From a bacterium (GTDB lineage: Bacteria > UBP4 > UBA4092 > JAOAEQ01), in contig JAOAEQ010000005.1 of assembly GCA_026416715.1 (NCBI GenBank), positions 1,190 to 65,189 on the forward strand: a DNA stretch of 64,000 nucleotides. The letters run 5' to 3'. The position numbers and the translations under genes were made by a program. Positions 10,719 through 52,001 of the stretch are shown here, piece after piece. The first letter of the stretch is position 1. Every line of letters begins with the position of its first letter. The notes under the pieces were generated by a model. That model ran no database searches and was not told where the DNA came from. It saw nothing but the letters and a program-made list of their open reading frames with translations.

Positions 10719-10736
10719 TATTTCTTACTAAGCGAG

Positions 10737-17747: not shown

Positions 17748-17754
17748 AGATTGA

Positions 17755-19140: not shown

Positions 19141-19406
19141 TCGTATGTAGTAATTCTAAGTTACCTATTGGAAAATGTTTCGATATTATTTACACCCACA
19201 AGTAATTATACACGTTACATAATATTGAATAACTTTGACCAAACCACGATATGCTTATCTTAGAGTTTATATTGAACCTGATAAATTGGAGTAAATCCCG
19301 GTTAAATCGGGCGGAACATATCTAACGCTCGATATACCAATGTGTTACAACTTGAATTTAATTGGGTAACTGTGACTGAACCCATCAACAAAACTGAAGT
19401 CATATG

Positions 19407-20387: not shown

Positions 20388-20400
20388 ACTGTTTTATCTC

Positions 20401-21678
20401 CTATTTTATGAATGTGCGTTTTGTTACATTACTAAGTAACGTATGATATGCTTGTACAGCGGTTATTAAATTGTATTTCTTTTCAATCGCATAACGCGCA
20501 TTATATCGCATTTCATTTAATCTTACCTGATTATTATACAGGGATAAAATCGCATTGAGCAACCCAACTTTATCTCCCGGTTCTACCACAACACCGCAAT
20601 TCTCCTCTTGGATAACCTTAGCAATTTCCGATTTCGCCGACATAATCGCGATGACGGGAACGCCAGCAGCTAAATAGCCAAAGGTTTTGGAAGGAACAGA
20701 CAACCCTTCTTGCCCACGAGCTAGTGAAACTAATCCCAAATGCGCACAGGATAATGAGAATCCGAGTTGTGCGCGTTCAACATAGGTATGAAACTGGCAA
20801 TTGGTTAAATGATTATCTTGCGCAAACTGCTGCATCCATTGTTTATAATGCCCTTCCCCAATAAACAGAAACTCTATATCTGGATACACCTGCAATTCTT
20901 TTACGACAGCCATAATTGTTTCCAGATCGTGGTATCGTCCCATATTGCCAGAATAACTAATTACGAATTTATCTTTTAACTTCCACTGGTCAATGTACGG
21001 ATTCGGTTTTCCGAACGCTTGCTGAATAAGACGGTCGTCACTCCAGATATGGATACGGTGGATTTTATCTCGGTCTTTTAAACCGTGCTGTTCGAACTTC
21101 TTAATAATTACTTCTTCCATACATCTACCGATAACTACGATAGCAGTCGCATGACGATATGTAAATTTATTAAACCATTCCCAGAGTTTTGCAACGAAAC
21201 TATCTTTTTTTAGTACACCAAGATTAATTGCACTATCCGGATACACATCGAAAATCAAATAGATATATGGTTTTCCGAGACCGATACTTTTTAAAATAGC
21301 ACAACTAACCGCAAGAAATGGCGGATTGGTTAAGACTAAAATCGGTCGTTTGCTGAAATCACACAATAGCTTGATAAAAGTTGAACTTGCATAGGTTATC
21401 TGGTTGATAATTCTTCCCCACAAATGCAACTTCGGAAATCGCGTTCCCCAAACCCGATGAATTCTTATTCCTTGATATTCAAGATATTTTGGAATTTTAT
21501 TTTGTTTTTTTAGAATGGTTACTGGACCACAGATAACTTCGATTTCAACTCCCAATTTTACTAATTCTTCACATAATTCGGTTAACGTCTGCCCAGTAGA
21601 AACGAGCTCTGGATAAAATAGTTGACAGAGAACCAATACTTTGATTCGATAATTATTGTTATTTTTATCCATTGACAA
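20401..21678 (-). CDS. GT4-family glycosyltransferase (WcaI-like)
   Basis: GT-B fold GT4-like sequence, N-terminal VLVLCQLFYPELVSTGQ typical of WcaI-type enzymes. Confidence 0.75.
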   Translation of the reverse strand: MSMDKNNNNYRIKVLVLCQLFYPELVSTGQTLTELCEELVKLGVEIEVICGPVTILKKQNKIPKYLEYQGIRIHRVWGTRFPKLHLWGRIINQITYASSTFIKLLCDFSKRPILVLTNPPFLAVSCAILKSIGLGKPYIYLIFDVYPDSAINLGVLKKDSFVAKLWEWFNKFTYRHATAIVVIGRCMEEVIIKKFEQHGLKDRDKIHRIHIWSDDRLIQQAFGKPNPYIDQWKLKDKFVISYSGNMGRYHDLETIMAVVKELQVYPDIEFLFIGEGHYKQWMQQFAQDNHLTNCQFHTYVERAQLGFSLSCAHLGLVSLARGQEGLSVPSKTFGYLAAGVPVIAIMSAKSEIAKVIQEENCGVVVEPGDKVGLLNAILSLYNNQVRLNEMRYNARYAIEKKYNLITAVQAYHTLLSNVTKRTFIK

Positions 21679-22792
21679 CCGCTATGTAAGCATCTAAAGT
21701 TGTTTTTGCCATTTTTTCCCAGACGAATAATTTTGCCCGTTGATATCCTTTTTCAATCAATTGTTTTCGTAAAACGGGTTGGGTTAGAATAGCATGGATT
21801 GCCTCAGCTATTGCTTGGGGGTTTTCCGGATCAATAAGCAGTCCTGCATCACCGATAATCTCGGGTAACGCAGTTCGGTTTGCCGCTATTACTGGACACC
21901 CGAATTTCATTGCTTCTACAACCGGGATGCCGAACCCTTCAAATAATGAAGGATGAACTACCAGCTCAGCTAATTGGTATAACCCAGCTAAATCAGGATC
22001 ACCTATATAACCAAGAATCAATACTCGATTGGGATTGATTTTATACTGTTTTATATGTTCTTGGATTGCTGATAATGATTGTAGTTTTAATCCAACCAAA
22101 ACCAAATCCACATTGCATTGGTCTGCGATTCGCGCATAAGCTTCCAGTAAACGTTTAAAGTTTTTATGGGGTAAGAGTGATGCAACTGATAAAATAAACG
22201 GAGCTTTAAGATTATACTTCGTTTGTATCTTTTCGTTAGACGGTATTGACAATTCAAAGATATCAAACTTCGATGCTGGATAGGTTACGATTATTTTATC
22301 TCTCGGTATATTCAATAACATCGCAATATCTTTTTTCGAATATTCTGATAATGTAATAATTCTATCTGCTTTTTTTGCACTTCTCGGAATAAAATACTGC
22401 CAATACCATAATCGAAATGTACTAAAGTTTTCCGGATAATATTTATATTGCATATCTGGAATAGTTACAATCGTATGGCTATCTATTGATAATGGTCCAA
22501 CATATCCTGGTGAATGGAGTAGGTCAATTCGTTCTTTTAGACCTAATTTCGGGAGAATAGCCTGTTCCCAGAAAACCCGAGTTGCTTTTATACGACTGGA
22601 GAAATTACATAGTATTCGCTTGAAATTCGGAAGTTTGAAATCAAACGAATCATGATTTTCGCGATTGGTAAAAAGTATATATTCATTTTGTGAATCAATT
22701 TTTGTTAAGCCATACAGTAATCCACGAACATAGGTCTCGGTTCCACCGACTTTCCCTGGAAGCAAGAATAAGGTATTAATTCCAATTCGCAT
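21665..22792 (-). CDS. GT4-family glycosyltransferase
   Basis: GT4 motifs (VGGTETYVRGL; C-terminal EGFGIPVVEAM); 14-bp overlap with the downstream GT4 gene. Confidence 0.8.
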   Translation of the reverse strand: MRIGINTLFLLPGKVGGTETYVRGLLYGLTKIDSQNEYILFTNRENHDSFDFKLPNFKRILCNFSSRIKATRVFWEQAILPKLGLKERIDLLHSPGYVGPLSIDSHTIVTIPDMQYKYYPENFSTFRLWYWQYFIPRSAKKADRIITLSEYSKKDIAMLLNIPRDKIIVTYPASKFDIFELSIPSNEKIQTKYNLKAPFILSVASLLPHKNFKRLLEAYARIADQCNVDLVLVGLKLQSLSAIQEHIKQYKINPNRVLILGYIGDPDLAGLYQLAELVVHPSLFEGFGIPVVEAMKFGCPVIAANRTALPEIIGDAGLLIDPENPQAIAEAIHAILTQPVLRKQLIEKGYQRAKLFVWEKMAKTTLDAYIAVVNG

Positions 22793-22800
22793 AAAAAATA

Positions 22801-24252
22801 TTATTTAAATACCGTTTGTTTAAGTTTAGCTAATTTGTGGATACAAACTAATAACCCAGCAAAAAACCAAAAATGGAGGTTATTTGGGAAACTTTCGAAA
22901 GTAACCCCGCCTAAAGCCGAAATGATTAGAATAATTATGCAGGCAAGCAGACCAAGAACGATTGTTTTTTCGAAAGATTCAGGGAGTATTCTGAATAGTC
23001 TAAACCCGAAACGCAATATACTTCCTAGTATCCAGATGAATAAAAATAAGCCGAACATTCCCATTTCAATTAGGAGTAATAAATAATAATTATGAGTTAA
23101 TGTTGCATCAGGTATTTCATAAAGGACTCCGACTGGACCAACCATACCTAACCCAATACCTAATAAATTCGAATCGAGCATCCGCTGGAATAATACCGTC
23201 CATTCATCTAATCGTTCCCGAATCGTGATATGGCTGGGGTCAAACGTTGTAATTCGACTGAATAATGCGGTCAACGCTAATGGTTGAATGAAATAAGCTA
23301 TAACGACTGCAATGCAAGCTATCAGCAGAAATCTAATAATAATTCTCGATTTCCCGGCGAGAAATCCGATAACCAGCGATGCGATAAATACTCCAAGCCA
23401 GGCACGTCGCGAGAAAGTAAACACTAAATTTATCCCACCAAAAAATAACGTTAATCCGAGCAAATACCGCCAACTTTTCACTAATTTATTGCGATAAACG
23501 AGCGCACCAAGACAGAATCCAACTAACATTGCCATAAATATCGCATACGCATTCGCACTATGTTCATCACCAAACACGGTTAATCGGCCAACAATATGTT
23601 CCGGCATGACCTCAAACCAAGTTCCTAATCCAATTTTAGTCGTAAAAATGCGGTATAGCCCCCACAGTGAAAAAAGCAACCCGCTCCACAGGAAAAGTTC
23701 AATCGCTTTTTGGATATCCTGCGCTCTGGTTAAAATTGCTATAGTTAAGAGAAAGACAAGAATAAATTCTACAGTAGACCGTAGCCCCCAAAAACCCGCT
23801 TTTACCTCTGGACTAACAAAAGTATAGATAAATGCTAATCCAATAAAACATAGTATCGGAATGTAAACTGGATAAAGTTCATTTTCCTTAATCGGTAAAC
23901 GATATCGTTTATGCACCAGATGTAAACCCCATACTCCTAGTAAACTTAATAACCAGATATCTTTCGGAACGCGAAGTAACGTTTTGGGTATTTCAACTCC
24001 GGTAAGTTGGGCAACGAGTTTAGTTTCACTTACTACGATTAAAAAAGGAGCTGATGCAATTAATAGTATTAACCCCGATTCTACATGGTAATACAGGAAT
24101 ATCAGCCAAATAAATGTAACTAGCACCCATACTACTATCCAAGGTTCCAAGTTGACACAAATTGCTGATATAAGTAGCAGTAGAAGTAACCAAAGATAAC
24201 CTTGCCGGAAATAGGACGATTTTGAAACCGCGATTTCTTTGACGTTGAGCAT
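22801..24252 (-). CDS. O-antigen ligase/polymerase family membrane protein (Wzy-like)
   Basis: 483 aa polytopic membrane protein placed between glycosyltransferases. Confidence 0.6.
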   Translation of the reverse strand: MLNVKEIAVSKSSYFRQGYLWLLLLLLISAICVNLEPWIVVWVLVTFIWLIFLYYHVESGLILLIASAPFLIVVSETKLVAQLTGVEIPKTLLRVPKDIWLLSLLGVWGLHLVHKRYRLPIKENELYPVYIPILCFIGLAFIYTFVSPEVKAGFWGLRSTVEFILVFLLTIAILTRAQDIQKAIELFLWSGLLFSLWGLYRIFTTKIGLGTWFEVMPEHIVGRLTVFGDEHSANAYAIFMAMLVGFCLGALVYRNKLVKSWRYLLGLTLFFGGINLVFTFSRRAWLGVFIASLVIGFLAGKSRIIIRFLLIACIAVVIAYFIQPLALTALFSRITTFDPSHITIRERLDEWTVLFQRMLDSNLLGIGLGMVGPVGVLYEIPDATLTHNYYLLLLIEMGMFGLFLFIWILGSILRFGFRLFRILPESFEKTIVLGLLACIIILIISALGGVTFESFPNNLHFWFFAGLLVCIHKLAKLKQTVFK

Positions 24253-24414
24253 TATATTTCATCACCAAAATTTTTCGATAATCATCATAAAATAATTATA
24301 ATACGGAATTTAACCTCTACGATAGGGAAAGAAAAAAATGGCAAATATCAAAATCTAAATTTCAAAATAATGCCGTGTTGAATTCGAATTTTTCAAAACA
24401 AAAGGTAACAAGGT

Positions 24415-25590
24415 TTATTTTGATGGGGATGATAAAAGTTGTCGGTAACAAGTTTCGATTGCAGCGACGTTCTGTTGAATATTAAAATGCTGCTCGAGTC
24501 GGTTACGACCTTGTTCTCCAAAGATTTTTCTTAATTCCGGACAATTTAGTAGTGTTTGAATTGCGGTCGCTAATGCTTCTACATCATTTGGAGGAACTAA
24601 AATACCAGTTTCATTATCAACAACAATTTCAGGAACGCCACCAACGTTACTTGCAACTACTGGTTTCCAATATAACATCGCTTCAAATAATACGGTAGGT
24701 AATGGGTCTGGCATAATTGAACTATGCACGATAATATCAGTCATCTGCATTAATATTGAAATATCGGTTCGATATCCGGTGAAAATCACTACCGATTGTA
24801 GATCTAATTGTTTCACTAATTGTTCAAGACACTGCTTATAGCCTCGTTCTCTCTCTTGAATAATATCACCGACAATAAGGAATTTTACTGGGATCTGCGT
24901 TCGTGAAATTAGTTTTTTTACTGCGGAGATAAAAATATGCTGACCTTTCCATTGCGCAATTTGACCAAACATACTTATAACAATTGCATCTGGCGGTATA
25001 TTGAGCTTACTTTTCGTTTTCTGAATTATCTCTTGGGATAGTTGTTTTGCTTGCAAGCAATCCATGCCATTATAGATAACCGTACATTTGTCTCGTGAAA
25101 CGCCTAATTCAATCAATCTGGTTTTAACAGCGTTTGAAACTGCGATAATCCGCGTTGCTAGACGTCCGGCAAATCCGATAAATTGCCGGTTAAACCAGCA
25201 GGGGGTAACGATATCATGCATATGCCAGATTATCGGCCGATGCATTAATTTAGCGGCAAAACCGCTGTATAACATTGCTGTAAACGAATTCGCATGCAGT
25301 AAATCTATTTTCTCTTTCTGAATCATGGTTTTCAATTGGGCAGTTGTTTTCCAGAAATTTGGAATATATAGTATTAATCGAATCGGATTATACGAACGTA
25401 CGAGCAACGGAATTTTAATTGGATAGGTTTTGATTCCAAGTTTAGTTATTTCAGATAACAATGTCCCGTCGGAGGGTGCAATTACGACCGGTTCAAATTT
25501 CGCTCGGTCAAGATGCGAAAGCAAATTCAATAGCACTCGTTCAGCTCCACTAATTTTTCCAACATGGTTTATATACAGTATACGTTTCAT
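24415..25590 (-). CDS. GT4-family glycosyltransferase
   Basis: GT4-like N-terminal domain (GKISGAERVLLNL) and C-terminal nucleotide-sugar binding region. Confidence 0.8.
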   Translation of the reverse strand: MKRILYINHVGKISGAERVLLNLLSHLDRAKFEPVVIAPSDGTLLSEITKLGIKTYPIKIPLLVRSYNPIRLILYIPNFWKTTAQLKTMIQKEKIDLLHANSFTAMLYSGFAAKLMHRPIIWHMHDIVTPCWFNRQFIGFAGRLATRIIAVSNAVKTRLIELGVSRDKCTVIYNGMDCLQAKQLSQEIIQKTKSKLNIPPDAIVISMFGQIAQWKGQHIFISAVKKLISRTQIPVKFLIVGDIIQERERGYKQCLEQLVKQLDLQSVVIFTGYRTDISILMQMTDIIVHSSIMPDPLPTVLFEAMLYWKPVVASNVGGVPEIVVDNETGILVPPNDVEALATAIQTLLNCPELRKIFGEQGRNRLEQHFNIQQNVAAIETCYRQLLSSPSK

Positions 25591-25708
25591 TTTTTTGTAG
25601 AGTTTAGAACCAAATATTTTTTGTTATTGTCGGGTTAGATCGAACGAACCTATCAAGCCTCGTACGATCTAACCATAGTATTTCTTGCCATGCTCCGTTC
25701 ACTCTAAC

Positions 25709-27022
25709 CTATTTCCTGTTAAATATAATGTTTTTCATATAATGAAAATCAATAAATAACGGGCGAATGTTGAATTGTTTGTTTAAAATAATCCAATAGA
25801 TCAATAAAACTGAAGCAGAAGTAATCAACGAAGTTATTGCTGCACCGAAAACGCCAAGTTTAGGAATTAATGCTAGATTAACCAGGATATTTATCACTGC
25901 GCCAAACCAGGTTAATTGCGCATTCCATTCTGGTTTTCCAATTCCATTAAATACACTTGCAGCAATCCGATAAAATGGATGCAGCAAACCCCAGAACGCA
26001 AACACTCGCACCAAACTTGCTGCCTCTTGATATTTTTCGCCATAAAAAACTCGGAGAATAAATTCAGGGAAAAAAAATAAAATTAATGTTACTGGGATAG
26101 CTAACAGAAATAAGAACCCTGATGCGGTTTCGTATATTTTCCGAATACGTTCCCGACTGATTTCTCCTAAAGACAAATCAATCTTCGCACTTTCTGGAAA
26201 TACAATTGCATTCATTGAATCATTTATCACGGTCGCAAAATTCGTGAATAAATGCGCGATATTATATACCGCGATGCTCATCGGACTAACCATAAAATAT
26301 GCCAGCATAAATAAATCTATTTTCGAATAGATTTGGACTCCGGCGCTATTGATAAACGAATAAGATGCAAACCGAGTAATACGTTTAAGCCATTCTATTT
26401 GTAGCTGATTTTTGAATTTTAGATACTCCCGTGCAAACCATAGTCCGGGAATTGAACTGATAAAATAACTTAATGCAACAATCCAGATAACTTCAATCCC
26501 GTTGGATAAATGCCCGGTAAGTTTGAAAAGAGTCAGAAAAAAAACAAAGTTACCTAAAACAAAACAATCAGTCCAAAAAACCTGTTTCAACTTTTGTTTT
26601 GCAATCAGAAGTTGGCGAATGAAATAATTGCATAATACTGCAAAAAGGATTAACGGTACCCAACGTAATAGAATCGCTAATCGTGGAACATGGAATATTG
26701 TCGCGATACCTTCGGAAAAGAAAAACAAGATACTTGATGAAAATATCGTCAGAATGAATTTAAGCAATAATGAATGGAAGTTTACGAGTGGAAGCTCAGA
26801 ATCATCTTTCTCTGCAGCGTATTTGATTAGCGCCTGCCCAATGGATAAATCACCAAACAAAATTAAAAAGACACGAATACTATCGCACAGAACCAGTACT
26901 CCATATTCTTCTTTTGGAATACTGCGTACTACCGTAATAACATAAACGAAAGAAAACAATGCTATGATGATACTATCTAAAATCGCATAAACACTACGAT
27001 GTATATATACATTAATTTTCAT
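25709..27022 (-). CDS. Wzx-like oligosaccharide flippase (MOP superfamily)
   Basis: 437 aa, about 12 TM segments, polysaccharide-biosynthesis-protein-like organisation. Confidence 0.65.
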   Translation of the reverse strand: MKINVYIHRSVYAILDSIIIALFSFVYVITVVRSIPKEEYGVLVLCDSIRVFLILFGDLSIGQALIKYAAEKDDSELPLVNFHSLLLKFILTIFSSSILFFFSEGIATIFHVPRLAILLRWVPLILFAVLCNYFIRQLLIAKQKLKQVFWTDCFVLGNFVFFLTLFKLTGHLSNGIEVIWIVALSYFISSIPGLWFAREYLKFKNQLQIEWLKRITRFASYSFINSAGVQIYSKIDLFMLAYFMVSPMSIAVYNIAHLFTNFATVINDSMNAIVFPESAKIDLSLGEISRERIRKIYETASGFLFLLAIPVTLILFFFPEFILRVFYGEKYQEAASLVRVFAFWGLLHPFYRIAASVFNGIGKPEWNAQLTWFGAVINILVNLALIPKLGVFGAAITSLITSASVLLIYWIILNKQFNIRPLFIDFHYMKNIIFNRK

Positions 27023-27935: not shown

Positions 27936-29042
27936 TTACTCTATTTTAAGAATTACAGATAAAAATTTATAAATATCCACTGTTTTTTCAATCGGTAATA
28001 AATGTTGGGCGATGATATTATTATAAAATAATACTCCTTTTTGGCTTTCTAATTCCGGATGATATCCATGCATCGCTTTCGGAATCTTCTTACCATAAAA
28101 ACTTGGGGAAAATACTAACCCTTCATTCAATAAGAAAAGAATATTACCAAATTTAGATGAGGTAAGTTTATATTGTAGTCGTTCTTCTGGAGTAATTATT
28201 CTGCCATACACTTGCTGATTGAGAAATTTTTCTAGTTCGGAACGTAGATTATTATCAAAAGTCCAAATACGCAGCATAGTTGAATCCTGTATATAGAAAT
28301 AACGCTCTGGACTAGGATTCCCAAACTCCGTTTCCATAATTAATTTAACTGATCCGGTAACATTCGTCATGCCATGATCGCTTATGACAACTATCTTTCC
28401 ATCTGGATATAACTTCTGATATTTTCCTATTAACGTGGAAATATTCGTATTCAACTCTTCTATTGCCTTTACATAATCTGACGTCCCAACACCTACCCGA
28501 TGCGTTATTCCATCTAAATCTACTAACCCGATAAATAACCGCGGATGAGATTCCATTGCGGTTAGTCCTGCGAGTGTCATTTTAGCATCGCGGTTAGGAT
28601 GTTTAAAATCAGGATATTTAATAACATATAAATCCGGATTCTGAATAAATAACGATGGAATATGATAGTTAGGCGAAAATATATCCGGCTGGTTCTGTAA
28701 ATAAGGTAAATAGTGGAATGGAATATTCCAAATGGGACCGAAAATTTTGTTTCCCAGACGATGTAAAACTCGGTCGATTACATAACATTTGCCCATTGGT
28801 GAAATGACCTTGAACAAAAACCGATATTTCCAGAACGGCGAATTAGTTCCGACATAAGTCCATTCACTGAAATATCCGAGTTCGTCTGGCATTTTCCCGG
28901 TAAAAAGTTCTGCCTGAATATTGATGCTATATCCAAACCCGGGAGTTAATGGAAGCTGAGTCACAAATTGCTTCGCAACTGCCATTTGTAAAGCATATTG
29001 ATACGGGAGACTATCAATGAATATAATGAGAAAATTAGCCAT
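27936..29042 (-). CDS. Alkaline-phosphatase-superfamily protein (nucleotide pyrophosphatase/phosphodiesterase-like)
   Basis: N-terminal IIFIDSLPY and VVISDHGMT metal-ligand motifs typical of the AP/NPP superfamily; no TM segments. Confidence 0.55.
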   Translation of the reverse strand: MANFLIIFIDSLPYQYALQMAVAKQFVTQLPLTPGFGYSINIQAELFTGKMPDELGYFSEWTYVGTNSPFWKYRFLFKVISPMGKCYVIDRVLHRLGNKIFGPIWNIPFHYLPYLQNQPDIFSPNYHIPSLFIQNPDLYVIKYPDFKHPNRDAKMTLAGLTAMESHPRLFIGLVDLDGITHRVGVGTSDYVKAIEELNTNISTLIGKYQKLYPDGKIVVISDHGMTNVTGSVKLIMETEFGNPSPERYFYIQDSTMLRIWTFDNNLRSELEKFLNQQVYGRIITPEERLQYKLTSSKFGNILFLLNEGLVFSPSFYGKKIPKAMHGYHPELESQKGVLFYNNIIAQHLLPIEKTVDIYKFLSVILKIE

Positions 29043-31873: not shown

Positions 31874-34639
31874 TCATTGAAAATCTATCCAACCCAAATC
31901 AATCGCTTCTCCAAACGTACCCTCCCCATCTCGATAGAAACCAAAAATTACTTTATAAGAAAGTGGTTCTGCAATAATATCGTTATGAATAATAACATAC
32001 TTCCCTACTGGCCAATGAGTGGTAACTGGATAAGGATAAAAATCCCAATTCTGCCCTTTCATCTGCCTATTAGATTCTGGCAATAATCCCACATCTTCTT
32101 CTTTTACTCTGCCGTGAATATAAACCAACCAATCCTTTTCTAACGGTTGATTTACTTTAAACAAGAAATACAGTCGATATTTTTTAGGTTCTAATTTTTT
32201 TAAATACACGTCAATAAAAGTTATTGCTGGATGGATAACTTTTTCTTTTCCACTCTGATGTTTAATACATAATGTTTCGAAGCTAGATGCTATTTCCCTG
32301 TATAGTTCGGGGATAATATTTTCGTAAAAAGCATAGGTCTGTAAAAATTCACCTATTTCAAAAATATTTTTACTGATTGATAACTGTTTCCACCTTTTAT
32401 ACAGTAAACCATCAAGATTATCCGTTGCAAAATCAATCCACCCTAATGGAATCGGTTTCCCGAAGGTTTTTCCTCCTTTATAAAAGCCGATAACTATATT
32501 ATATGGAATTGGTTCTGCTGAAATCACTCTCGATACAATGATGCTTTCATTTTTCCGCCAAGTTGATGTAGGTGGATCTGGCCAAAAATCCCAATTTTGT
32601 CCTTTCCACGATTGTACTTTTTCTGGTAACCTTGAAACATCTTCTTCTGCCACTTTACCGTGAACATATATTGCCCAATCGGTATCCATAAGTTCTTCCG
32701 TTTTAAATAATAAATATAGTTTATATTGTTTTGGATCAATCTTTTTATAATAATATCCCAAAAAGGATACCGCTGAATTCACTGCGAATCCCTGATGTTT
32801 AGTATATTCGGATATTATAGCCCTATATTTTTTATCTATTTCTTGAAATAGTTCCGGAAACGCTCTCTGATTAGATTGATATAATGAACGAAATTCATAG
32901 ATTTCAAATGGATTATTACTTGCTAAGATACGTTGCTGAGTTTTATCGACCTCATTTTTCGAAATCGAATACAGATACCAACTATACCCGTCTATTGGTT
33001 GTGCACCGGCATCGATACTCTGGTACGGCGTTTTTTTACCCTGCAATAATGCAGCAAGTTTACCACTCCAAGTTAAACATGGATATTCCTCGATTCTCGT
33101 AAACGTTGTTTCGAGGGTTAGTCCGAAAAGATTCGGTTCTCGAGAAACATAATAAATCTTTTTAACTCCAATATAATTACTAGGCCAATCTATTAAAACT
33201 GGATTATTGCGTTTATAGTAATACGGCAAAAATTCGTTAAAATAAAGCATGATTTTCTGTTCATATTCTTCTACTTGTTTAACTACCACTACTGCACCAG
33301 TAGAAAGTTTCTGGTCTAATTCAGTTAGCAATCGCTTTTCAATAGTTCTTGCATTATATTGCACAAGAAATTGATAAAGGAAATTGTGATAATTAACCAC
33401 GAGAAAGAAAAATAAAAACAAAACGACACCTCCAACTATGACCATGCCGAATCTTCTATTATTTTTAGCATGAGCCCAGATGGGTATAGTAGAAAAAGCT
33501 AATATTATTGCCAGCAATGGTACCACCGGATACCAATATCGTAATGCTTGCTCCCACGAGGTACAAAGAATGCAATATAATCCTATAAACTCAATAATAA
33601 GTATTAGGAAAAAAGTATTCGATTTCGCAATCGTTTGCGTTTTTCCATAAATTCGTCCCCAAATATATATTCCTTTTCGCAGATATCCCAGCCGCACCAA
33701 TCCTAATAATAGAAAGGCAATACTGAGAATAATCTGGGTATCAAGCAATAAGATACTTCGAACCAACCACCATCCGTTACTTACCAAAAGTTTTAAAGTT
33801 ATCGTTGGGACACCGTATCCACCTCCTTGAAAGGCTAGTTTGACTCGGAAAAAAGTGTATAGCAATACTAAAATCAACGGTAGCAGGCGGAATAAATATT
33901 TTTTCGAACTATGGTTTGATTCTAAGATGATGAAAATTAATAAAAATATAAACAGTAAAATGATATTTATCTCTTTCACAATTGATAAGCCAAAATAGCT
34001 AATGTAAATGAGAAAAAGATTCAACCGCGATGTAGAACTAAATTCGCCATTGGACTGGACAATGAGTATCGCTATTGCATAGTTAATGATGGCTAAAAAT
34101 AAACCGGTATGTAATTCCACCGGAGCTAGTCTTGCTTCGGGGTTATTGGGAAAGAAAAAGAATATGAAACTAAATGTTAGAACCGGAATATTGAATGATT
34201 TAATTAGCCTAATGAAACAGCGATTGACATTATCTTTTCCCTGGTGTAATGATTGTTGCTCGTGATTGGTTTGTATGAATAAAGAAAGACATTTAATCCA
34301 GAAATAAAACGAAATAAGTTTTACTACCCAACGAAATGCATGATGTAAAACCGGATTTGGTCCAAACAAAAACCAGACAAAAAAGTTATAAATATAGAGA
34401 AACGGACGATATCGACCGGAACCCAAATTGATAAATGTATTGTTAACCCAAGCAGCGAATTCACTGGCATTTTCGGCCAACTTAACCACTTGCCAGTCAA
34501 TATAATCGTCAATAAGTCCAAACGGCGTTTTCAGTGAATAATATATTGCAGGAAGAAGGAGAACAAAAATAATTAGGTAGATTAACCAATTTAAGAAGTG
34601 CGTTTTCATACTCTTTCGATAATTTGAACTTTTGACCAT
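31874..34639 (-). CDS. Large polytopic membrane protein with tandemly duplicated C-terminal extracytoplasmic domain
   Basis: 921 aa; N-terminal about 420 aa with many TM helices; two about 160 aa repeats (FEIYEF...GWIDFATD and FEIGEF...GWIDFQ) sharing KGQNWDF and GWIDF motifs. Confidence 0.6.
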   Translation of the reverse strand: MVKSSNYRKSMKTHFLNWLIYLIIFVLLLPAIYYSLKTPFGLIDDYIDWQVVKLAENASEFAAWVNNTFINLGSGRYRPFLYIYNFFVWFLFGPNPVLHHAFRWVVKLISFYFWIKCLSLFIQTNHEQQSLHQGKDNVNRCFIRLIKSFNIPVLTFSFIFFFFPNNPEARLAPVELHTGLFLAIINYAIAILIVQSNGEFSSTSRLNLFLIYISYFGLSIVKEINIILLFIFLLIFIILESNHSSKKYLFRLLPLILVLLYTFFRVKLAFQGGGYGVPTITLKLLVSNGWWLVRSILLLDTQIILSIAFLLLGLVRLGYLRKGIYIWGRIYGKTQTIAKSNTFFLILIIEFIGLYCILCTSWEQALRYWYPVVPLLAIILAFSTIPIWAHAKNNRRFGMVIVGGVVLFLFFFLVVNYHNFLYQFLVQYNARTIEKRLLTELDQKLSTGAVVVVKQVEEYEQKIMLYFNEFLPYYYKRNNPVLIDWPSNYIGVKKIYYVSREPNLFGLTLETTFTRIEEYPCLTWSGKLAALLQGKKTPYQSIDAGAQPIDGYSWYLYSISKNEVDKTQQRILASNNPFEIYEFRSLYQSNQRAFPELFQEIDKKYRAIISEYTKHQGFAVNSAVSFLGYYYKKIDPKQYKLYLLFKTEELMDTDWAIYVHGKVAEEDVSRLPEKVQSWKGQNWDFWPDPPTSTWRKNESIIVSRVISAEPIPYNIVIGFYKGGKTFGKPIPLGWIDFATDNLDGLLYKRWKQLSISKNIFEIGEFLQTYAFYENIIPELYREIASSFETLCIKHQSGKEKVIHPAITFIDVYLKKLEPKKYRLYFLFKVNQPLEKDWLVYIHGRVKEEDVGLLPESNRQMKGQNWDFYPYPVTTHWPVGKYVIIHNDIIAEPLSYKVIFGFYRDGEGTFGEAIDLGWIDFQ

Positions 34640-34668
34640 TTAAGTTTAATATATTCTGAACCTAAATT

Positions 34669-35364
34669 TTATTTTTTCCGCGCACAAACTGCAATGGTGA
34701 CCATCCATCGTGCTAATCTCTTATCTAACTTCTTATCCAACCATCTTAATATGCCATTCAACCAAGGAATAACAGATGGGAATACATGAATGCCTTTGTA
34801 TTCAAGTATTTCTAAATTAAGATTCTCTAGAAAAATCCGAAATGCTTTATAATAATGGAGCCAATTTTCGTATCCTTTATGCCTTCTTACTCCAATTACA
34901 TTGGCTAAAACAACCGCAAAATACCAGAATGATTTATTGGGAACAGTGATACAAATAATCCCATTTTTTTAAGACACGAACCAGTTCCCGAGTAGCTTGT
35001 AGCGGGTTGGAAGTATGTTCGATAACATCAGAAGAAATAACATATCCAAATGCATTTTCCTTAAAAGGCATCGCGAGAATTGAACCAACCACACCGTGAG
35101 CCATTGAATTTTTTTCTTTTGTTATCTTAACGAGTCGTTCACCAATATCAATTGCAATTACTTTTCCGGATCTATCTATTATCGCTTTCGTAAACCACCC
35201 GGTACCGCAACCGGCATCGAGAATAAGTTTATTCTCTAATATTTGCGTACCTAAAAATCAGTAAAAATAACCTCAATTCTTCTCTGGGTATCATATCGGT
35301 TGCTTAGTGAATCAAATTTAATAGCTATTTCATTATAAAATTTCTCTTTATCATTACTTTTCAC
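34669..35364 (-). pseudogene. Class I SAM-dependent methyltransferase interrupted by two frameshifts in homopolymer runs
   Basis: No ORF of 60 aa or more in the track; manual minus-strand translation gives three consecutive frames with methyltransferase motifs (LILDAGCGTGWF, VIAIDI, RVLKK then GIICITVPN); frame breaks coincide with T7 (34964-34970) and A5 (35252-35256) on the plus strand; no in-frame ATG. Confidence 0.5.
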
Positions 35365-36277
35365 AATTTTTTTCTTTAATAATATATTGTGGTCTGCGTT
35401 TCGATTCAATAAATAGTTTCCCTAAATACTCACCAATTATTCCTAAGATGAGAAGTTGTATACTCCCGATAAACAAGACACTAACAATAAGTGACGCCCA
35501 ACCAGGAACAGTTTTATCAGTAAATATTGTTATACCTACCGCATATCCTCCATAAAGAATGCATAAAAATGCTAATATTAATCCTAAAAAGGTTGCTAAA
35601 TGCAATGGCCTAGTACTAAATGAAGTAATTCCGGTTATCGCAAGAAGAATCATATTTTTAAAGGAATATTTGGTCTTCCCGGAATATCTTTTTTGAGGAG
35701 TATATTCTAATGCATATTGGCGGAAACCAACCCAAGAAACTAACCCTCGAAGGAAAATAAAGGTCTCATTCAGTTCTCGTAATATATCAATCACCTTTCT
35801 ATCTAATAATCGGAAATCTGCTGTTCCCGGAGTTATTTCAATTTCAGATATTTTATTCAGTAGTTTATAGAATAACCACGACGTTTTTCTCTTTAAAAAT
35901 GAAGCATCAGGGTATTCTTTCCGGACAGTATACACGATATCGTATCCTTCTTGCCATTTTTGAATCATCGCATCAACTAATTCTGGAGGATGTTGTAAAT
36001 CTGCATCAAGAGTGATTAAACAGTCTCCTGTCGAATAATCTAGCCCGGCTTTTAATGCTTTTTGTTGGCCAAAATTTCGCGAAAACGCAAGATATTTTAT
36101 CTTAGCTCCGTTTTCTACAAGTTCTTTAATTCGTTCTAACGTTGCATCCGTACTGCCGTCATCAACAAAAATAATTTCGTAATCCGAATACTTGTTTAAG
36201 ACCTCGGTTAGTTTCTTTACAAGAATCGGAATATTTTGTTCTTCATTATAACAGGGGATTACTACAGATATTTTCAT
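35354..36277 (-). CDS. GT2 polyprenyl-phosphate sugar synthase (GtrB/ArnC-like)
   Basis: VVIPCYNEE...IFVDDGSTD...LDADLQHPP GT2 motifs and C-terminal TM helices. Confidence 0.8.
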   Translation of the reverse strand: MKISVVIPCYNEEQNIPILVKKLTEVLNKYSDYEIIFVDDGSTDATLERIKELVENGAKIKYLAFSRNFGQQKALKAGLDYSTGDCLITLDADLQHPPELVDAMIQKWQEGYDIVYTVRKEYPDASFLKRKTSWLFYKLLNKISEIEITPGTADFRLLDRKVIDILRELNETFIFLRGLVSWVGFRQYALEYTPQKRYSGKTKYSFKNMILLAITGITSFSTRPLHLATFLGLILAFLCILYGGYAVGITIFTDKTVPGWASLIVSVLFIGSIQLLILGIIGEYLGKLFIESKRRPQYIIKEKNCEK

Positions 36278-39769: not shown

Positions 39770-42700
39770 CTATTGGTTATTCTTTAAATATACTTTTAAT
39801 TTATTTGGTGGAAAAAACAATTCAATATCATCTACATATAATTGAACATTTCTCCCTCGAGTATTAATACCAAGATATACAATATGCATATTATCAATAT
39901 CCCAGCAATGAACATCATCAACTGATCTATAGGAAACAAATAAATCTGGATACACTCGAATATCACCACTAATATCCTTTTGTGATAATGCACGTTTTTT
40001 AGCAATTTGATAGAGGTCATTTATTTTTAATTCAATCCAATTGGAACTGATTGAATATGCTTGAGAACAAAACGCTTCGTTATGTTTTCCATTATAGGTA
40101 ACCGTAGCATTTAATTCTACCTTACTTTCGGTTGTTCCTCGTACAAAAAGACGAACTCCTATCGGACCGCGTAACGGTATGACAACCTCCTTACCCCAAT
40201 AATCTACCCAGCCTGGTATAGGATAGACTAAGTCAATCAGTTCACTTTTTTTACCCCGATGAGCATAGGTGGTTGAAAGGTAATGACCTATTATTTTTGA
40301 TTTATCACTCCAATGCCAATTTTTTAACTGCACCGCAGTAGCTGTTTCAAAAGTTTCGATTGGAACAGAGAGTTTCGCCAGGCGTTGAATCATTTTTAAA
40401 TCTCGGCATCCGTATTGAAATGCCTCGCTATATTTTAAGAGTGCATTTAGCATATCTTTTTGTTGATAAAATCTATCGCCGTCTTCCATGATTTGTTTTG
40501 CTTTTCTATCATTATCTATAGAAACTGATACAATAATATCCCGAATATCCTTATTGTTCATTGGCGTTACAGACCAAAGTAATCTTGGCAATAACGCTGG
40601 TAAACCAACAGTTTGCCCAACATTTATGGTATCTACAGTGGAAACTATTGTATATCCTATTGCATCCCACTTTGTTTTCTCATTCCATAAATAGCAATAA
40701 GCGATGAGTGTATCTTGTACGAAATGAGGTGGAATGGTCACTTTTGTGGTGAACTTTGCCTGATGATTTATGGTAATATTTTTTTGGATAACTAATTTCC
40801 CTTTTTCAGTCTTGATGATAACACTCCCTTTTGCAGGTCGTTTTCTATCCAGTGTTCCTGTAATTCGAATTTGAGGTTTAGATTTTATGGTCCGCGTTCC
40901 CTCTAATTGAACTATATCGTGAGGGAATGAAAGTTGTGTACCCGGATCACCTAACAAGACATAGGTAGCAGAAATATCAGGTAGTTTAATTTCTTGTTTC
41001 GCATTAATAAAAATATCACCAAGACGTCGAACATTCTTTTTAAACATCTGCGTGAACATTGCCCGGTCAAATGCATCGTTGGAAGAAACATAGCTTCGCC
41101 AAGTAGCGCTAATCACCGCTATCGCACCAGCGTTCGGTGTTTTTAGTAACACTTCACCAAGGCTATCATTATCAATATTATCAAAAACGCCGGTATAACA
41201 AGTTAAAGCGATTACTAATGGATATTTTCCATAGTTTTTCAATTGCAATATATTTTTTACTCCAAAAAAATCACGGTTATCTGGAACGACTTCTACTCCA
41301 TGTCGCTCTAAATCCATGCGACCGCTTTCCCAAACATATCCGCCGCCATGCCCAGTAAAATGAAGTATGATTCGTCCTTCGTTAATATTTTCAACAATAT
41401 CTTCCGTTCGATATTTATAATCCGGTGAACCACTTGATGGATATCTGCGATATACTTCATAATATGATGGCACATACGATTTCGCTAATTCTTCACTAAT
41501 CCCTTCAAACATCGGTTCTGGACTCGCTAAAAAGAATATCTTTTGACGCCATTGACCAAAGTTCGGCTTCTGTTCGTATTGAATAATTTTATTTACTACA
41601 TTAGTTACTTCTTCAATCGAATGCGCAGAAATCCTACCAATTGCCATTTCCGGTTTTGTTTCATCTTCGCCAACCGCGACAAACCAGTTATCTGACGCTG
41701 CTGCACCCATATATGTTGCCCAATAATACGTAGGAATATATAACCGAGCATGCGCTAGATTCATATTTCCGCGTAAATCAACACTAACATCACCGACGAG
41801 TAAAACATATCGCGGTCGTGGTTGCCAGTTGTAATAGGCATACTTGAGAAAAGACTTAATTGCTTTCGCATCAACTAATCCATAGTTGAAAGTATCATAA
41901 ACTTCTGATGTTTTGACACATTTTACCGTTAATCCGGTCTTCTTACGCCATGCTAACAACGGTTGAATTGCAGGATAAAAATCATCGTGCGTTATAACCA
42001 GATATTCCGCACCACTTGTATCTTGTGTTAAATCGTAATACATTATTTTTTCGATTTTAACCGGAGATTTTTTCTGCCTATCAGTTAGAGCAATGTAATG
42101 AACCGAACTCGATTCGTTATATAGTGTAAATTGTGCTTTAAAAGAACTTGAAGAATCAAGTGAACTTATTGTAATTGCAGGTATTATTACTTTCTTGTGA
42201 GTAATATCATATACATTAATATGTGGATTCGTAAACCCTCGAATTTCATGTTGGCTGGTAACTATATCATAGTTCATATTTATTGCGCTAAATACTAATT
42301 CATCGTTGGTTGCAATAAATGATTTCCAATAACTTAATTGAAATTGAACCATATAGATAACATCAATATCAGATGCTTGCCCAGTTGGATCACCAGATTT
42401 TCCAGGTAACGATATTTGCAATACATTATTCCCTGCCTTAAAAAAATTCATCGGAACCGTATTACATTGATAAGTATGTTTTGCCCGACCATACCACCGA
42501 GTTTCACCAACTCGATTTCCGTTTAATCCAATAACAACATAATGGTTTCCATACGAGACTCCTTGAAATACTATAGATAGTGAACAGAATAATGTTGGAG
42601 CTAAAATGGGATGGGTGATAGTAAACTGAAATGGATAATCATTCACCGGCGCAGCTATTTCCCGCCAATACCATAGATTTTGCTGCTCTTCTGTTTGTCC

Positions 42701-43228
42701 AGCAGCGGTTCGTGAATAAATAAAGGTTTCCTTACGAAATTGAGTATCTCTAAACATTGTTTTAGTCGAGAAAGAGATACTGGTTGCAAGCAAATGAGTT
42801 TGTTCTATATTCCAGCGTAATCCGGTTGATTTTCCCCAGGTTAAATAATAGACATTGGTATCAGAATATTCATCAGGTTCACCATCCGAATTACGATTTT
42901 TCTCGCCATAAAATTCAATATAATCATTGGTTCCATCTAAGGTATAGCGGGTTGTAAACTCAGCGCTACACAATATTGGGATTTCTCTCCCTCGATTCCA
43001 GAGCTGAATACTGTGAGGAGTAACCTGACTTAAATTACAACCGGCATCTGCTAAATCTCGATATCCGATTCGATAGATTCCATCTTCATCAATATAAATT
43101 TTACATAATTCGGTCGGACCCGACCCTACTCCATACAAACCCCAAGCTACTGAACACAGTAATAGCATTATTCCTATACCTACTAGTATTATTTTATTAG
43201 TTAAGCGCTCTCTTCTATATTGTTTCAT
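39770..43228 (-). CDS. Secreted C25-family (gingipain-like) cysteine peptidase homolog with C-terminal accessory domains
   Basis: 1152 aa; signal peptide; central region with candidate catalytic His (ILHFTGHGGG) and Cys (PLVIALTCYTG) in C25-like spacing; conserved YVLLVGD block; C-terminal about 180 aa shared with the TPR protein. Confidence 0.6.
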   Translation of the reverse strand: MKQYRRERLTNKIILVGIGIMLLLCSVAWGLYGVGSGPTELCKIYIDEDGIYRIGYRDLADAGCNLSQVTPHSIQLWNRGREIPILCSAEFTTRYTLDGTNDYIEFYGEKNRNSDGEPDEYSDTNVYYLTWGKSTGLRWNIEQTHLLATSISFSTKTMFRDTQFRKETFIYSRTAAGQTEEQQNLWYWREIAAPVNDYPFQFTITHPILAPTLFCSLSIVFQGVSYGNHYVVIGLNGNRVGETRWYGRAKHTYQCNTVPMNFFKAGNNVLQISLPGKSGDPTGQASDIDVIYMVQFQLSYWKSFIATNDELVFSAINMNYDIVTSQHEIRGFTNPHINVYDITHKKVIIPAITISSLDSSSSFKAQFTLYNESSSVHYIALTDRQKKSPVKIEKIMYYDLTQDTSGAEYLVITHDDFYPAIQPLLAWRKKTGLTVKCVKTSEVYDTFNYGLVDAKAIKSFLKYAYYNWQPRPRYVLLVGDVSVDLRGNMNLAHARLYIPTYYWATYMGAAASDNWFVAVGEDETKPEMAIGRISAHSIEEVTNVVNKIIQYEQKPNFGQWRQKIFFLASPEPMFEGISEELAKSYVPSYYEVYRRYPSSGSPDYKYRTEDIVENINEGRIILHFTGHGGGYVWESGRMDLERHGVEVVPDNRDFFGVKNILQLKNYGKYPLVIALTCYTGVFDNIDNDSLGEVLLKTPNAGAIAVISATWRSYVSSNDAFDRAMFTQMFKKNVRRLGDIFINAKQEIKLPDISATYVLLGDPGTQLSFPHDIVQLEGTRTIKSKPQIRITGTLDRKRPAKGSVIIKTEKGKLVIQKNITINHQAKFTTKVTIPPHFVQDTLIAYCYLWNEKTKWDAIGYTIVSTVDTINVGQTVGLPALLPRLLWSVTPMNNKDIRDIIVSVSIDNDRKAKQIMEDGDRFYQQKDMLNALLKYSEAFQYGCRDLKMIQRLAKLSVPIETFETATAVQLKNWHWSDKSKIIGHYLSTTYAHRGKKSELIDLVYPIPGWVDYWGKEVVIPLRGPIGVRLFVRGTTESKVELNATVTYNGKHNEAFCSQAYSISSNWIELKINDLYQIAKKRALSQKDISGDIRVYPDLFVSYRSVDDVHCWDIDNMHIVYLGINTRGRNVQLYVDDIELFFPPNKLKVYLKNNQ

Positions 43229-43240
43229 AAAATCGTCTTT

Positions 43241-45886
43241 CTACTCCTCTGTTTTTGGATCTGCCTCATTATAATGTGGTGTTACTGGAGCTACCAGTTC
43301 CCGAGCCGCAGCAAATCGTTTGCTATATTCATTCCATAAATTTATTGTTATGACTAACGGAATTGTTCGGTAAGCACCCGAGATAGCAAATTGTGCATTC
43401 CATTTCATTTGATTATTCGGTACCAAAAAGGAAGATATTAAATCACCTGATTGTGTCCGAAGCTGAATGATTCCTCGTGTAAACTCATTTGCCCACATTC
43501 CACTCCCATCGGTTACCGAAATTATTCCTAGGTCCGATGTGGTTGTTTCGATTCGTTCGATTTTACATGGTATCGGCTCTGGAATTGAGATTAGTAATCC
43601 AGGGTCACCTAATAAAGTATATAAATTATTTATCTCTTCGTTATTAACTTCTCGTTTAGCATCTAAAAATGCATCTCCGAGTCTTATTGGAGTAGTTGAT
43701 TGAAATATTCGACGTAAAAATGCTTTATCAAACATTTCAAAACTAGCTTGTGAAACTCGATAGGTACCTCCAACACAGGCAATTGCACCAGCTTTATCGA
43801 CTTTTAATAATGCTTCCCCTATTCCATCTGACCACATGGAATCAAATTCGTTTGCATAACAAGTCATCAAAATAACTAACGGATATTTCTTTTTATTTTG
43901 TAACTTGGTTATATGTCTTACACCGAAAAATCCGCGATCTTTATATCCGACAGTTTCGGGTTGTCCTTCTTCACCCGGTCGGCCAACATCCAAATGAAAC
44001 GGACTCGCATGACCAGTAAAATGAACCAACCAAGCTCCTTCATTAAACCATTCTATCACATTTTGCGGTGTAATAACTACCGATTCAATGGTTTCCGGCG
44101 TTGCATAGCGCGGTAAAGAATTCATCTGATTGGGTACAACATGTTTCATCAACTCAAGATTGATTTGGTCAGTCCATTCCCGTGGAGTTGCTAGAAATAA
44201 TACTGATTGACGCCAGGGACCAAATTCTGCTTGCAATTCATATTCCAAAATTTTATTGATTACCGCTTCTGTTTCTGATACCGAATGCGATGGGATTCGA
44301 CCTATTGCGAGTTCCGGTATCGAATCTTCTCCTTCTAAACAAACATACCAGTTATCACTAGCAGCATATCCCGCTGACGATGCAAAATAATGCATCGGGA
44401 TATATGTTCGCCCCTCAGCTAAATTTAAGCTTCCTTTCATATCCCAACTCGCATCCCCAACTAAGAGAACATATTTCAATCGGGGGGATTTCCAGTGGTG
44501 ATAAGCATAGAATAAAAAATCACGAATCGCTTGCGGATTGATTATTCCGAAATTAAATTCATTATAGATATCTTCAATATTAACGAGTTCAGCCAATAAC
44601 CCTTGTTGTTTTCGCAATTCGACTAAAGGCTTCAAAATTTCATTAAATTCTGATGGAGAAATAATGATATACTCTGCTGATATTTCAGGATTCCGCCATT
44701 TACCAATCCATTGTTTCTCTATTCGAAACGGGGTTTTAATCCGATTTTCAGTGCACGCGAAATAAGATTGCGGTAAATCGGCTTTTTCAGGTTCAAAATA
44801 GGCAAAATAAGTCGTTTGTTTTAACAAACCCAATTTGGGTATTACTATCGGTTCGTATTTAGTAGTATTAGAGAGATTATATATACAAATATTCGGGTAG
44901 GTAAAATTTTTTATTCGTAATCCGGAAGGAAAAGTATGCTGCAAATCTTTATCTGAGAGTTGAAATTGAATATCATTATTGGTTGCGACTAGCTGTTGCC
45001 AACAATCTATTTCAAACCAAGAAAGAAAAACTACATCGATTTCCGACGCTAAATGTTTCGGGTCGCCCTCTTTACCTGGCAACGATATTTCTAACGAATT
45101 ACTTCCGACCTTAAAATATCCTATTGGGACAGAATCATTGGTATAAAGGAACTCGGTTGCTCCATCCCATCGTATTTCACCGAGAGGATATCCATTTAAA
45201 GAAATCACGACATAGTGGTCTGGATTTTGCGGTAACCGCGATACACCAAAAAATTTTATACGAACGCTACACTGCTTTGTAGTATCGCTACTTAACGATG
45301 GAACCGTGAACAGTAATTTTTTCTTCGTTGGTGCAGCAAGTTCCATCCAAAACCATCGTTCAGCAGCATCAATATTTACCCAACGGGAATGGATGAATTT
45401 TTCTTCCCGATGAATCTTATTGAGATAATCTATTTCAGATTGTGCTTTGATAATGCCATTCCATTTTGACTGCGGTTTTCCAATTACCCTATACCACTGC
45501 GGAGATAAATTGGGATTTGTCCAATGTAAAAAGTAAACGTTCGTATCCGTATATTCATCATAGTAAGCTGTTGAACCACGATTGAATGTTCCATAGAATT
45601 CGAGATAATCATTTTTATTCCATTGACTTGATTTTGTGGTTCCCGCGGAAAAATATACTGGAATACATTTTCCTCTGTTAGTTAATCGAATTTTGGTTGG
45701 ATTGATTTCTAACGGATTAATTCCTGCATCAAGTAGATCGAAATAGGTTATTCGATACAGTCCATCTTCATCAACGAAAATTTTTACTACGTTTTCTAAA
45801 TTTGGCTGTTTCGCTGGTAGTCCTAAAATGAGACTAACTATAGATAAAAAAAACGACACAACAATTATACTGCGGTTTAATTTCAT
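43241..45886 (-). CDS. Secreted C25-family (gingipain-like) cysteine peptidase homolog, paralog of the upstream gene
   Basis: 881 aa; signal peptide; colinear with the 1152 aa paralog through the N-terminal domain and catalytic region (YVLLVGD, LVHFTGHASP, PLVILMTCYAN) but with a different, shorter C-terminus. Confidence 0.6.
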   Translation of the reverse strand: MKLNRSIIVVSFFLSIVSLILGLPAKQPNLENVVKIFVDEDGLYRITYFDLLDAGINPLEINPTKIRLTNRGKCIPVYFSAGTTKSSQWNKNDYLEFYGTFNRGSTAYYDEYTDTNVYFLHWTNPNLSPQWYRVIGKPQSKWNGIIKAQSEIDYLNKIHREEKFIHSRWVNIDAAERWFWMELAAPTKKKLLFTVPSLSSDTTKQCSVRIKFFGVSRLPQNPDHYVVISLNGYPLGEIRWDGATEFLYTNDSVPIGYFKVGSNSLEISLPGKEGDPKHLASEIDVVFLSWFEIDCWQQLVATNNDIQFQLSDKDLQHTFPSGLRIKNFTYPNICIYNLSNTTKYEPIVIPKLGLLKQTTYFAYFEPEKADLPQSYFACTENRIKTPFRIEKQWIGKWRNPEISAEYIIISPSEFNEILKPLVELRKQQGLLAELVNIEDIYNEFNFGIINPQAIRDFLFYAYHHWKSPRLKYVLLVGDASWDMKGSLNLAEGRTYIPMHYFASSAGYAASDNWYVCLEGEDSIPELAIGRIPSHSVSETEAVINKILEYELQAEFGPWRQSVLFLATPREWTDQINLELMKHVVPNQMNSLPRYATPETIESVVITPQNVIEWFNEGAWLVHFTGHASPFHLDVGRPGEEGQPETVGYKDRGFFGVRHITKLQNKKKYPLVILMTCYANEFDSMWSDGIGEALLKVDKAGAIACVGGTYRVSQASFEMFDKAFLRRIFQSTTPIRLGDAFLDAKREVNNEEINNLYTLLGDPGLLISIPEPIPCKIERIETTTSDLGIISVTDGSGMWANEFTRGIIQLRTQSGDLISSFLVPNNQMKWNAQFAISGAYRTIPLVITINLWNEYSKRFAAARELVAPVTPHYNEADPKTEE

Positions 45887-51605: not shown

Positions 51606-51642
51606 GAATAACAAGAGCGGCTTTAACCCGCTCTTGTTATTC
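51606..51642 (+). terminator. Hairpin downstream of lptD (putative terminator)
   Basis: AATAACAAGAGCGG (51607-51620), loop CTTTAAC, CCGCTCTTGTTATT (51628-51641); perfect 14-bp stem but no clear U-tract. Confidence 0.4.
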
Positions 51643-52001
51643 CCAAAAACAATTTGCTTCATCGAGTGATTCAGGCTAAATAATATGACTGATGGATTAT
51701 TAATACTACTAGTTTGAGTATTTTAATTTTTTGGAGATTATTTCTCTTCGCGATTATCGAGAAACTATGGGATTAAACTGACTACGAATCGAAGTTCGCC
51801 ATTTAAAATCAAAACATGTTATCTGGTATATGCTCTGTATTTCTTGCGCGACTTAGTGAACGGTAGCTCTACTTTAGATTGAGGGCAAGTTGACTAACCA
51901 GCTAAATAATGGTAAATTGTATAGTCAAATTTGTTTGATTGGATGATGAATGTATGCGACCCTATCGGTAATTCGAAACTGTCTGCTGCAAGGCAAATAT
52001 T

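Follow-up and report, generated by a model that had tools for sequence, protein, structure and literature searches.

A probable recent methyltransferase pseudogene between GtrB-type GT2 and GT-C glycosyltransferase genes in an uncultured UBP4 bacterium

Introduction

When a recognizable enzyme is encoded in pieces across shifted reading frames, has the gene been lost, has it been switched off, or has it been misread? This question is raised by the region between a large membrane-protein gene and a GT2 glycosyltransferase gene in a bacterium of the GTDB lineage UBP4 (assembly GCA_026416715.1, contig JAOAEQ010000005.1), from which a stretch of 64,000 nucleotides, referred to here as the window, was analyzed. 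The original prediction held that no open reading frame (ORF) of at least 60 aa separates these two genes, as is borne out by the largest ORFs in 34640-35353 (56 and 52 aa), and that the minus strand nevertheless carries a complete class I methyltransferase interrupted by single-base frameshifts at two homopolymers. A genuine pseudogene, slipped-strand phase variation of a glycan-modifying enzyme, and sequencing error were put forward as explanations. The evidence presented herein favors a recent, genuine pseudogene of the ordinary kind, derived from a soluble, cytoplasmic class I SAM-dependent methyltransferase, to which we assign a probability of about 0.65.

Gene Layout and Public Annotation

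The disrupted gene occupies positions 34669-35364 of the minus strand, from a GTG start (35364-35362) to a TAA stop (34671-34669), and its reconstructed product is approximately 231-232 aa in length. Segment A (35254-35364, minus strand) provides codons 1-37, corresponding to the N-terminal helices, and is followed by a premature TAG (35253-35251). Segment B (34967-35257, minus strand), which lies in the -1 frame relative to A, carries SAM-binding motif I (LDAGCGTG), the acidic residue D73, and the SSDVIEH motif, and reaches as far as RVLK; its open frame (35257-34937) runs on as the non-homologous sequence KWDYLYHCSQ to a TAA at 34936-34934. Segment C (34672-34965, minus strand) extends from NGIICITVPN to the C-terminus, contains strands β5-β7 of the fold model, and ends at the stop codon at 34671-34669. 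As A and C share a frame and B alone is shifted, the gene is split across two frames, not across the three originally proposed, and internal stops are absent from each segment. The expectation that no in-frame ATG would be found, and that translation would begin at a GTG overlapping the end of the GT2 gene (stop 35356-35354), is upheld by the alignment of this start with the initiator Met of the homologues and by an identical TGTGAA context in the nearest relative (L092). A scan for promoters and terminators around the locus yielded nothing informative.

In the public annotation, the locus is represented by MCX7918590.1 (34934-35242, minus strand; inferred locus tag N3A72_03060), a 102-aa "class I SAM-dependent methyltransferase" that exact-sequence look-up identified as segment B only, read from a non-canonical ATA start. 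This identity indicates that the annotation pipeline called the central fragment as a protein, not as a pseudogene. Fragments of 56, 52, 37, and 30 aa were also considered as candidates for MCX7918590 and rejected, being absent from the collection in which the 102-aa ATA version is present; the homologue search with the repaired protein did not list MCX7918590.1, though the same collection contains it. Spanning only β1-β4 of the seven-stranded fold in the structure model, the 102-aa product, so modeled, cannot be a functional methyltransferase. A pseudogene flag is warranted for MCX7918590.1, which covers only the middle third of the broken 231-aa gene.

Homology and Fold of the Repaired Methyltransferase

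Each segment can be recognized independently of the others. When compared singly with P0001, the closest intact homologue, segment A matches residues 2-34 (E 1.6e-13), segment B residues 35-131 (E 3e-41), and segment C residues 133-229 (E 2e-44), such that the three map end to end onto consecutive, non-overlapping parts of one protein and are collinear with it; on these alignments, a chance origin of the three-segment homology is excluded. The repaired 231-aa protein scores 69.2 bits against Pfam Methyltransf_11 (cut-off 21.2; E 4.9e-19), with the match falling mainly in segment B, and the claim of a complete class I methyltransferase in pieces is thereby substantiated. P0001 is also the best homologue of the repaired protein (E 7e-89, 62% identity, 99% coverage). 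Altogether, 29 intact homologues with 48-62% identity were collected, which range from 227 to 245 aa (227-235 aa in 27 of the 29) and are covered to 97-100% in 26 cases. The LDAGCGTG motif (motif I, GxGxG) and D73 (the acidic residue at the end of β2) are invariant columns in a 16-sequence alignment.

A structure model of the repaired protein (pLDDT 84.3) displays a complete class I methyltransferase fold, with strands at residues 47-50, 68-73, 90-93, 106-111, 132-143, 184-192, and 223-230. The full seven-stranded fold is obtained only after in silico repair, no single remaining ORF being sufficient to encode it. With Foldseek, the repaired model matches 3l8d, 2avn, the sugar O-methyltransferases AtmM/RebM, and UbiG at a probability of 1.0. 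The repaired protein thus shares LDAGCGTG, D73, SSDVIEH, and the seven-stranded fold with the class I SAM methyltransferases (Methyltransf_11/25; UbiG/UbiE-, BioC-, and RebM/AtmM-like), but differs from them in that the window gene is not an intact ORF and has no NCBIfam equivalog, all NCBIfam matches lying far below their cut-offs. Sequence and fold searches of the PDB returned generic small-molecule methyltransferases only, with no hint of a substrate.

Close relatives are scarce. The best identities to the methyltransferase were 58% in the genome scan, 55% in the metagenome scan, and 62% among proteins; each of the window proteins that were looked up stands alone in its 90% cluster, and an exact look-up of three flanking proteins among indexed contigs gave no match. 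As no sequence from the same species or genus was present in the collections searched, the ancestral state of the two tracts has to be deduced from relatives at no more than 63% identity.

Two Lesions of Different Kinds

On the coding strand, lesion 1 coincides with a T5 run (plus-strand A5) at 35253-35257, one position away from the 35252-35256 first reported. In the homologous loci L001, L003, L021, and L092, the corresponding site reads GAT TTT TTA/TTG GG, in which an in-frame T6 encodes D-F-L-G, and the addition of one T to the window sequence restores TDFLGTQ. Lesion 1 is therefore best read as a 1-nt deletion, wherein the loss of one T from a T6 run at codon 38/39 would have broken the frame.

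Lesion 2 falls in an A7 run on the coding strand at 34964-34970, the plus-strand T7 having been placed correctly from the outset. Contrary to the original proposal that one additional base at each site would restore some 230 aa, a +1 change at both sites leads to a stop after ...RVLKKMGLFVSLFPINHSGILRLF*; site 1 requires +1, whereas site 2 requires either -1 or +2. The homologues help to choose between these, as all 15 that were aligned possess one more residue at site 2 (RVLKPxG) and none has a gap in that loop. In L092, for instance, the site reads CTT AAA CCG AAT GGA (L-K-P-N-G), as opposed to TTA AAA A AAT GGG in the window, and removal of CC from AAA CCA AAT yields exactly the window's AAAAAAAT, an operation that itself creates the A7 run; an example of the in-frame form is ...AAACCAAAT... 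Among the 15 locus sequences read at this site, a Pro codon interrupts the run in 14, the remaining one (L083) having an in-frame A6, and the loop reads LKKGG in both L083 and P0027.

From these comparisons, lesion 2 would most parsimoniously be a deletion of 2 nt and not slippage by one base in a homopolymer. Two bases were most probably lost from the Pro codon (the CC of CCA) of the conserved LKPNG loop, giving rise to the present A7 run; shortening of A9 to A7, from an ancestral LKKNG, is an alternative form of the same 2-nt deletion, and a 1-nt insertion into A6 would be less parsimonious. The notion of two single-base homopolymer lesions accordingly survives at site 1 but probably not at site 2.

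The Surrounding Cassette

The methyltransferase gene is flanked by two intact, full-length genes that keep the invariant residues of their families and bear out the glycan-modifying context suggested by the original prediction. Upstream lies a GtrB/ArnC/PgfS-type polyprenyl-phosphate glycosyltransferase gene (MCX7918591.1; 35354-36277, minus strand), the product of which carries two C-terminal transmembrane (TM) helices, matches Pfam Glycos_transf_2 (E 1.6e-39), and aligns over its full length with the NCBIfam models PgfS (E 8e-89) and ArnC (E 1e-49), without reaching either equivalog cut-off. Downstream lies the gene for a 911-aa membrane protein (MCX7918589.1, N3A72_03055; 31874-34609, minus strand) comprising an N-terminal domain of approximately 10 TM helices with the fold of a GT-C transferase and a duplicated C-terminal soluble domain; this family is without a Pfam model. 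The soluble part constitutes an internal duplication (31874-32854, minus strand; residues 596-738 and 771-920 of the 921-aa ORF), and L092 encodes, at positions 19-492 upstream of its GT2 gene, a separate 157-aa protein that is homologous (45% identical) to one of the repeats. The locus adjoins a Wzx/Wzy-type polysaccharide cluster (16578-27022).

The association of these genes is not confined to the window. A GT2 gene directly adjoins the methyltransferase gene in 28 of the 47 family loci with enough flanking sequence (upstream and on the same strand in 21), and in nine of the 14 loci inspected the next gene after the methyltransferase encodes a polytopic membrane protein. The closest cassette, that of L092, has the same gene order, with identities of 68% (GT2), 63% (methyltransferase), and 57% (GT-C). 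The order of GT2, a methyltransferase of approximately 230 aa, and a 9-12-TM protein recurs in L002-L005, L013, L043, L047, L081, L082, and L092, in metagenome-assembled genomes (MAGs) labeled Bacteroidota, Ignavibacteria, Planctomycetota (Pirellulales), or unclassified bacteria. In these loci, the GT2 and methyltransferase genes frequently share 4-17 nt. MAGs of Verrucomicrobia and the candidate phyla radiation (Pacebacteria) provide further cases of GT2 paired with the methyltransferase alone.

Within this family, the methyltransferase is not always present or intact. In L090 and L091, homologues of the GT-C protein are accompanied by a GT2 but by no methyltransferase, and L091 (GT2, EamA-like, GT-C) has an EamA-like 107-aa gene in the methyltransferase position. 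In L021 (6001-6474), the methyltransferase is truncated directly after RVLKP and followed by unrelated sequence, and in L047 (6001-6680) it is frameshifted at an A6 run, GGCAAAAAATGCG. Taken together, these loci indicate that the methyltransferase is an optional accessory of the GT2/GT-C pair, the loss of which is tolerable.

Weighing the Explanations

Of the three alternatives originally offered, the pseudogene is thus favored by the confinement of both lesions to one gene, by the 2-nt deletion, and by the dispensability of the methyltransferase, and both sequencing error and phase variation are disfavored. Several lines of evidence bear first on the possibility that the gene is intact in the cells and that the indels are assembly, polishing, or consensus artefacts, arising from sequencing errors or from the consensus of a mixed population. 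Both breaks do fall in A/T homopolymers of a metagenome-assembled consensus, and the sequence around them looks fully constrained, with 49 of 51 strictly invariant columns kept, no extra stops, and normal divergence from the nearest relative. Against this stands the quality of the remaining sequence: the window's remaining 46 ORFs (56.6 kb) are all intact, and their 370 homopolymer runs of at least five bases (244, 87, 29, and 10 runs of length 5, 6, 7, and 8, respectively, including ten A8/T8) contain no frame disruption. In this regard, accessions MCX7918561-605 and locus tags 03050-03105 follow the ORF order at every gene looked up, so there is no sign of another pseudogene feature in the window. 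Both lesions, by comparison, lie inside a single 696-bp gene, and the chance that two random run errors would both strike its six runs is approximately 15/70500, or 2e-4. Real mutations, on the other hand, naturally cluster in one gene, as a second hit is neutral once the first has occurred. Moreover, if site 2 were corrected by -1, the protein would come out a residue too short in a loop that is ungapped in the 15 aligned homologues, and the length-preserving correction, +2, is atypical of a homopolymer miscall. To our knowledge, a 5-nt run such as that at site 1 is rarely miscalled on any current platform. An artefact is, on balance, unlikely.

If the inactivation is real, it must be recent, given that there is no clear sign of decay in the methyltransferase as judged from its sequence. 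The repaired protein misses seven of the 80 columns conserved at 93% or above, compared with a mean of 2.9 and a maximum of 9 among the intact homologues. Divergence was also assessed by regression of the methyltransferase on GT2, in which the residual is +0.005 for the nearest relative, but the mean residual over 25 distant taxa is -0.065, the lowest of 26; because these values conflict, the divergence-excess test was dropped as evidence of decay. The lesions themselves are absent from the orthologues: the 29 database homologues are uninterrupted, as are most of the loci.

Surface-glycan modification genes are classic phase-variable loci, and the two runs could be regarded as contingency tracts of a glycan-methylating enzyme that the assembly happened to catch in its OFF state. 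The recurrence of in-frame T6 at site 1 in several homologues, the A6-run frameshift carried by a family member from another MAG (L047), and the instability of comparable tracts in Listeria monocytogenes inlA all lend this idea some support. In inlA, the mutation rate of A6/A7 tracts exceeds that of point mutations 100-1000-fold, at 5.5e-7 for A6 to A7 and 3.9e-8 for A7 to A6, and frameshifting at a short A/T run leads to a truncated product, as in the window (PMC2831843). The resemblance ends there: inlA has one 5' tract at which a single event restores the frame (PMC2831843), whereas the window has two mid-gene lesions, one of which is probably a 2-nt deletion that created its run. In a contingency locus with simple sequence repeats, one change in a hypermutable tract toggles the frame; here, with lesions at both T5 and A7, the ON state needs two independent changes, the joint frequency of which would fall below about 1e-13 at inlA-like rates. 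In addition, T5 is far shorter than the tracts of known contingency loci, the tract at site 2 is not conserved (14 of 15 loci having the Pro codon and L083 having A6), restoration of the homologous length at site 2 needs +2, and neither lesion is at the 5' end. Phase variation of this kind is consequently judged highly improbable. The related proposal that the two tracts form a population-level ON/OFF polymorphism, in which strain variants or slippage control sugar methylation, has a similarly small probability; if true, it would represent a seroconversion-like switch in an uncultured lineage, governing the methylation of a sugar from a widespread, uncharacterized cassette.

Recoding, in which the full-length protein would be produced because ribosomes shift frame or the polymerase slips at each of the two sites, is barely credible. 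On sequence inference, U UUU UAG at site 1 permits a -1 P-site slip of tRNA-Phe beside the stop to give D-F-L-G, and the A7 run permits some transcriptional slippage. Nearly all of the homologues examined, which come from many phyla, are nevertheless encoded by one unbroken ORF, such that no recoding is conserved; site 2 has no recognized +1 or -2 shift motif, and two low-efficiency events in series would leave negligible product.

Functional Context of the Pseudogene

A recent pseudogene at this position would have consequences for the glycosylation pathway that its neighbors are predicted to form. In three-component periplasmic glycosylation (GtrA/GtrB/Gtr*, ArnC/ArnT, PgfS/PgfM; Mann and Whitfield, 2016; Kelly et al., 2024, PMC11127046), the gene for a GtrB-type GT2 anchored by two TM helices lies beside that for a GT-C transferase, and the window likewise pairs such a GT2 with a GT-C protein near a Wzx/Wzy cluster, as in the three-component scheme. 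In contrast to these systems, the window has a SAM methyltransferase gene between GT2 and GT-C and its cassette is without a GtrA-like flippase gene; a search for a small multi-TM ORF (GtrA or SMR/EamA-like flippase) within 31874-36277 found none. A search of the full-text literature found no description of a methyltransferase-containing three-component system.

By analogy with this scheme, the GtrB-like GT2 would load a sugar onto polyprenyl phosphate, and the GT-C glycosyltransferase would transfer the lipid-linked sugar outside the cytoplasmic membrane. Given that the methyltransferase is soluble and its cofactor SAM is found in the cytoplasm, whereas GT-C enzymes work beyond the membrane, we infer that the intact enzyme methylated the sugar on the cytoplasmic side, on either the nucleotide sugar or the polyprenyl-phosphate-sugar donor. 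A precedent for a cytoplasmic SAM methyltransferase in a lipid-carrier glycan pathway, by analogy only, may be seen in AglP of Haloferax volcanii, described in PMC3871713 (citing Magidovich et al., 2010) as a SAM-dependent methyltransferase acting in N-glycosylation, the glycan of which is built on dolichol phosphate; AglP differs in being archaeal and in belonging to an oligosaccharyltransferase pathway. With the methyltransferase lost, the GT2/GT-C pair may now add an unmethylated sugar, or the modification may have changed. The pseudogene hence suggests that the organism has lost, or varies, methylation of the sugar added by a GtrB/GT-C-type extracytoplasmic pathway, which would amount to ordinary surface-glycan diversification. 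Of more interest is a by-product of the analysis, namely the cassette of GT2, methyltransferase, and Pfam-less GT-C that recurs across many phyla.

Other Features of the Window

A second, intact class I SAM methyltransferase (MCX7918585.1; 27141-27929, minus strand), approximately 26% identical to the pseudogene family, is encoded in the same polysaccharide cluster and is adjoined by an alkaline-phosphatase-family protein (27936-29042). Three other ORF pairs in the window that might have been taken for split genes were rejected as such, each consisting of separate intact genes: the pair at 383/724 encodes a HEPN-domain protein and a nucleotidyltransferase, that at 7682/8554 encodes AroE and a prepilin peptidase, and that at 48324/49295 encodes an LptF/G protein and a signal-peptide protein. 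The first of these pairs (383-1089, plus strand), in which the HEPN gene overlaps that of an MNT-type nucleotidyltransferase, looks like a toxin-antitoxin module. The gaps at 3252-3805 and 9457-10736 were similarly dismissed as broken genes, as they contain L31 and a proline-rich secreted protein, respectively. The latter (9879-10646, plus strand) is extremely proline-rich in its N-terminal half and coiled in its C-terminal half, and its composition gives rise to three long spurious ORFs on the opposite strand.

Between 51566 and 52001, a stretch of 436 nt has no ORF of at least 30 aa on either strand and no Rfam match at the gathering score; it includes a perfect 14-bp hairpin at approximately 51608-51643 (AATAACAAGAGCGG / CCGCTCTTGTTATT). 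For the ArgB protein (11625-12512, minus strand), relatives at 80-83% identity, none of them named, are encoded on short contigs from metagenomes, and its nearest lineage-named matches, at approximately 59-62%, are mainly from Candidatus Poribacteria, with Thermodesulfovibrio and Nitrospirae close behind. Lastly, the minus strand at 39770-45886 encodes, in tandem, two large proteins of the Peptidase C25 (gingipain) type, 1152 and 881 aa in length, directly upstream of genes for a TPR protein and for a CehA/McbA metallohydrolase that carries a CarboxypepD_reg domain.
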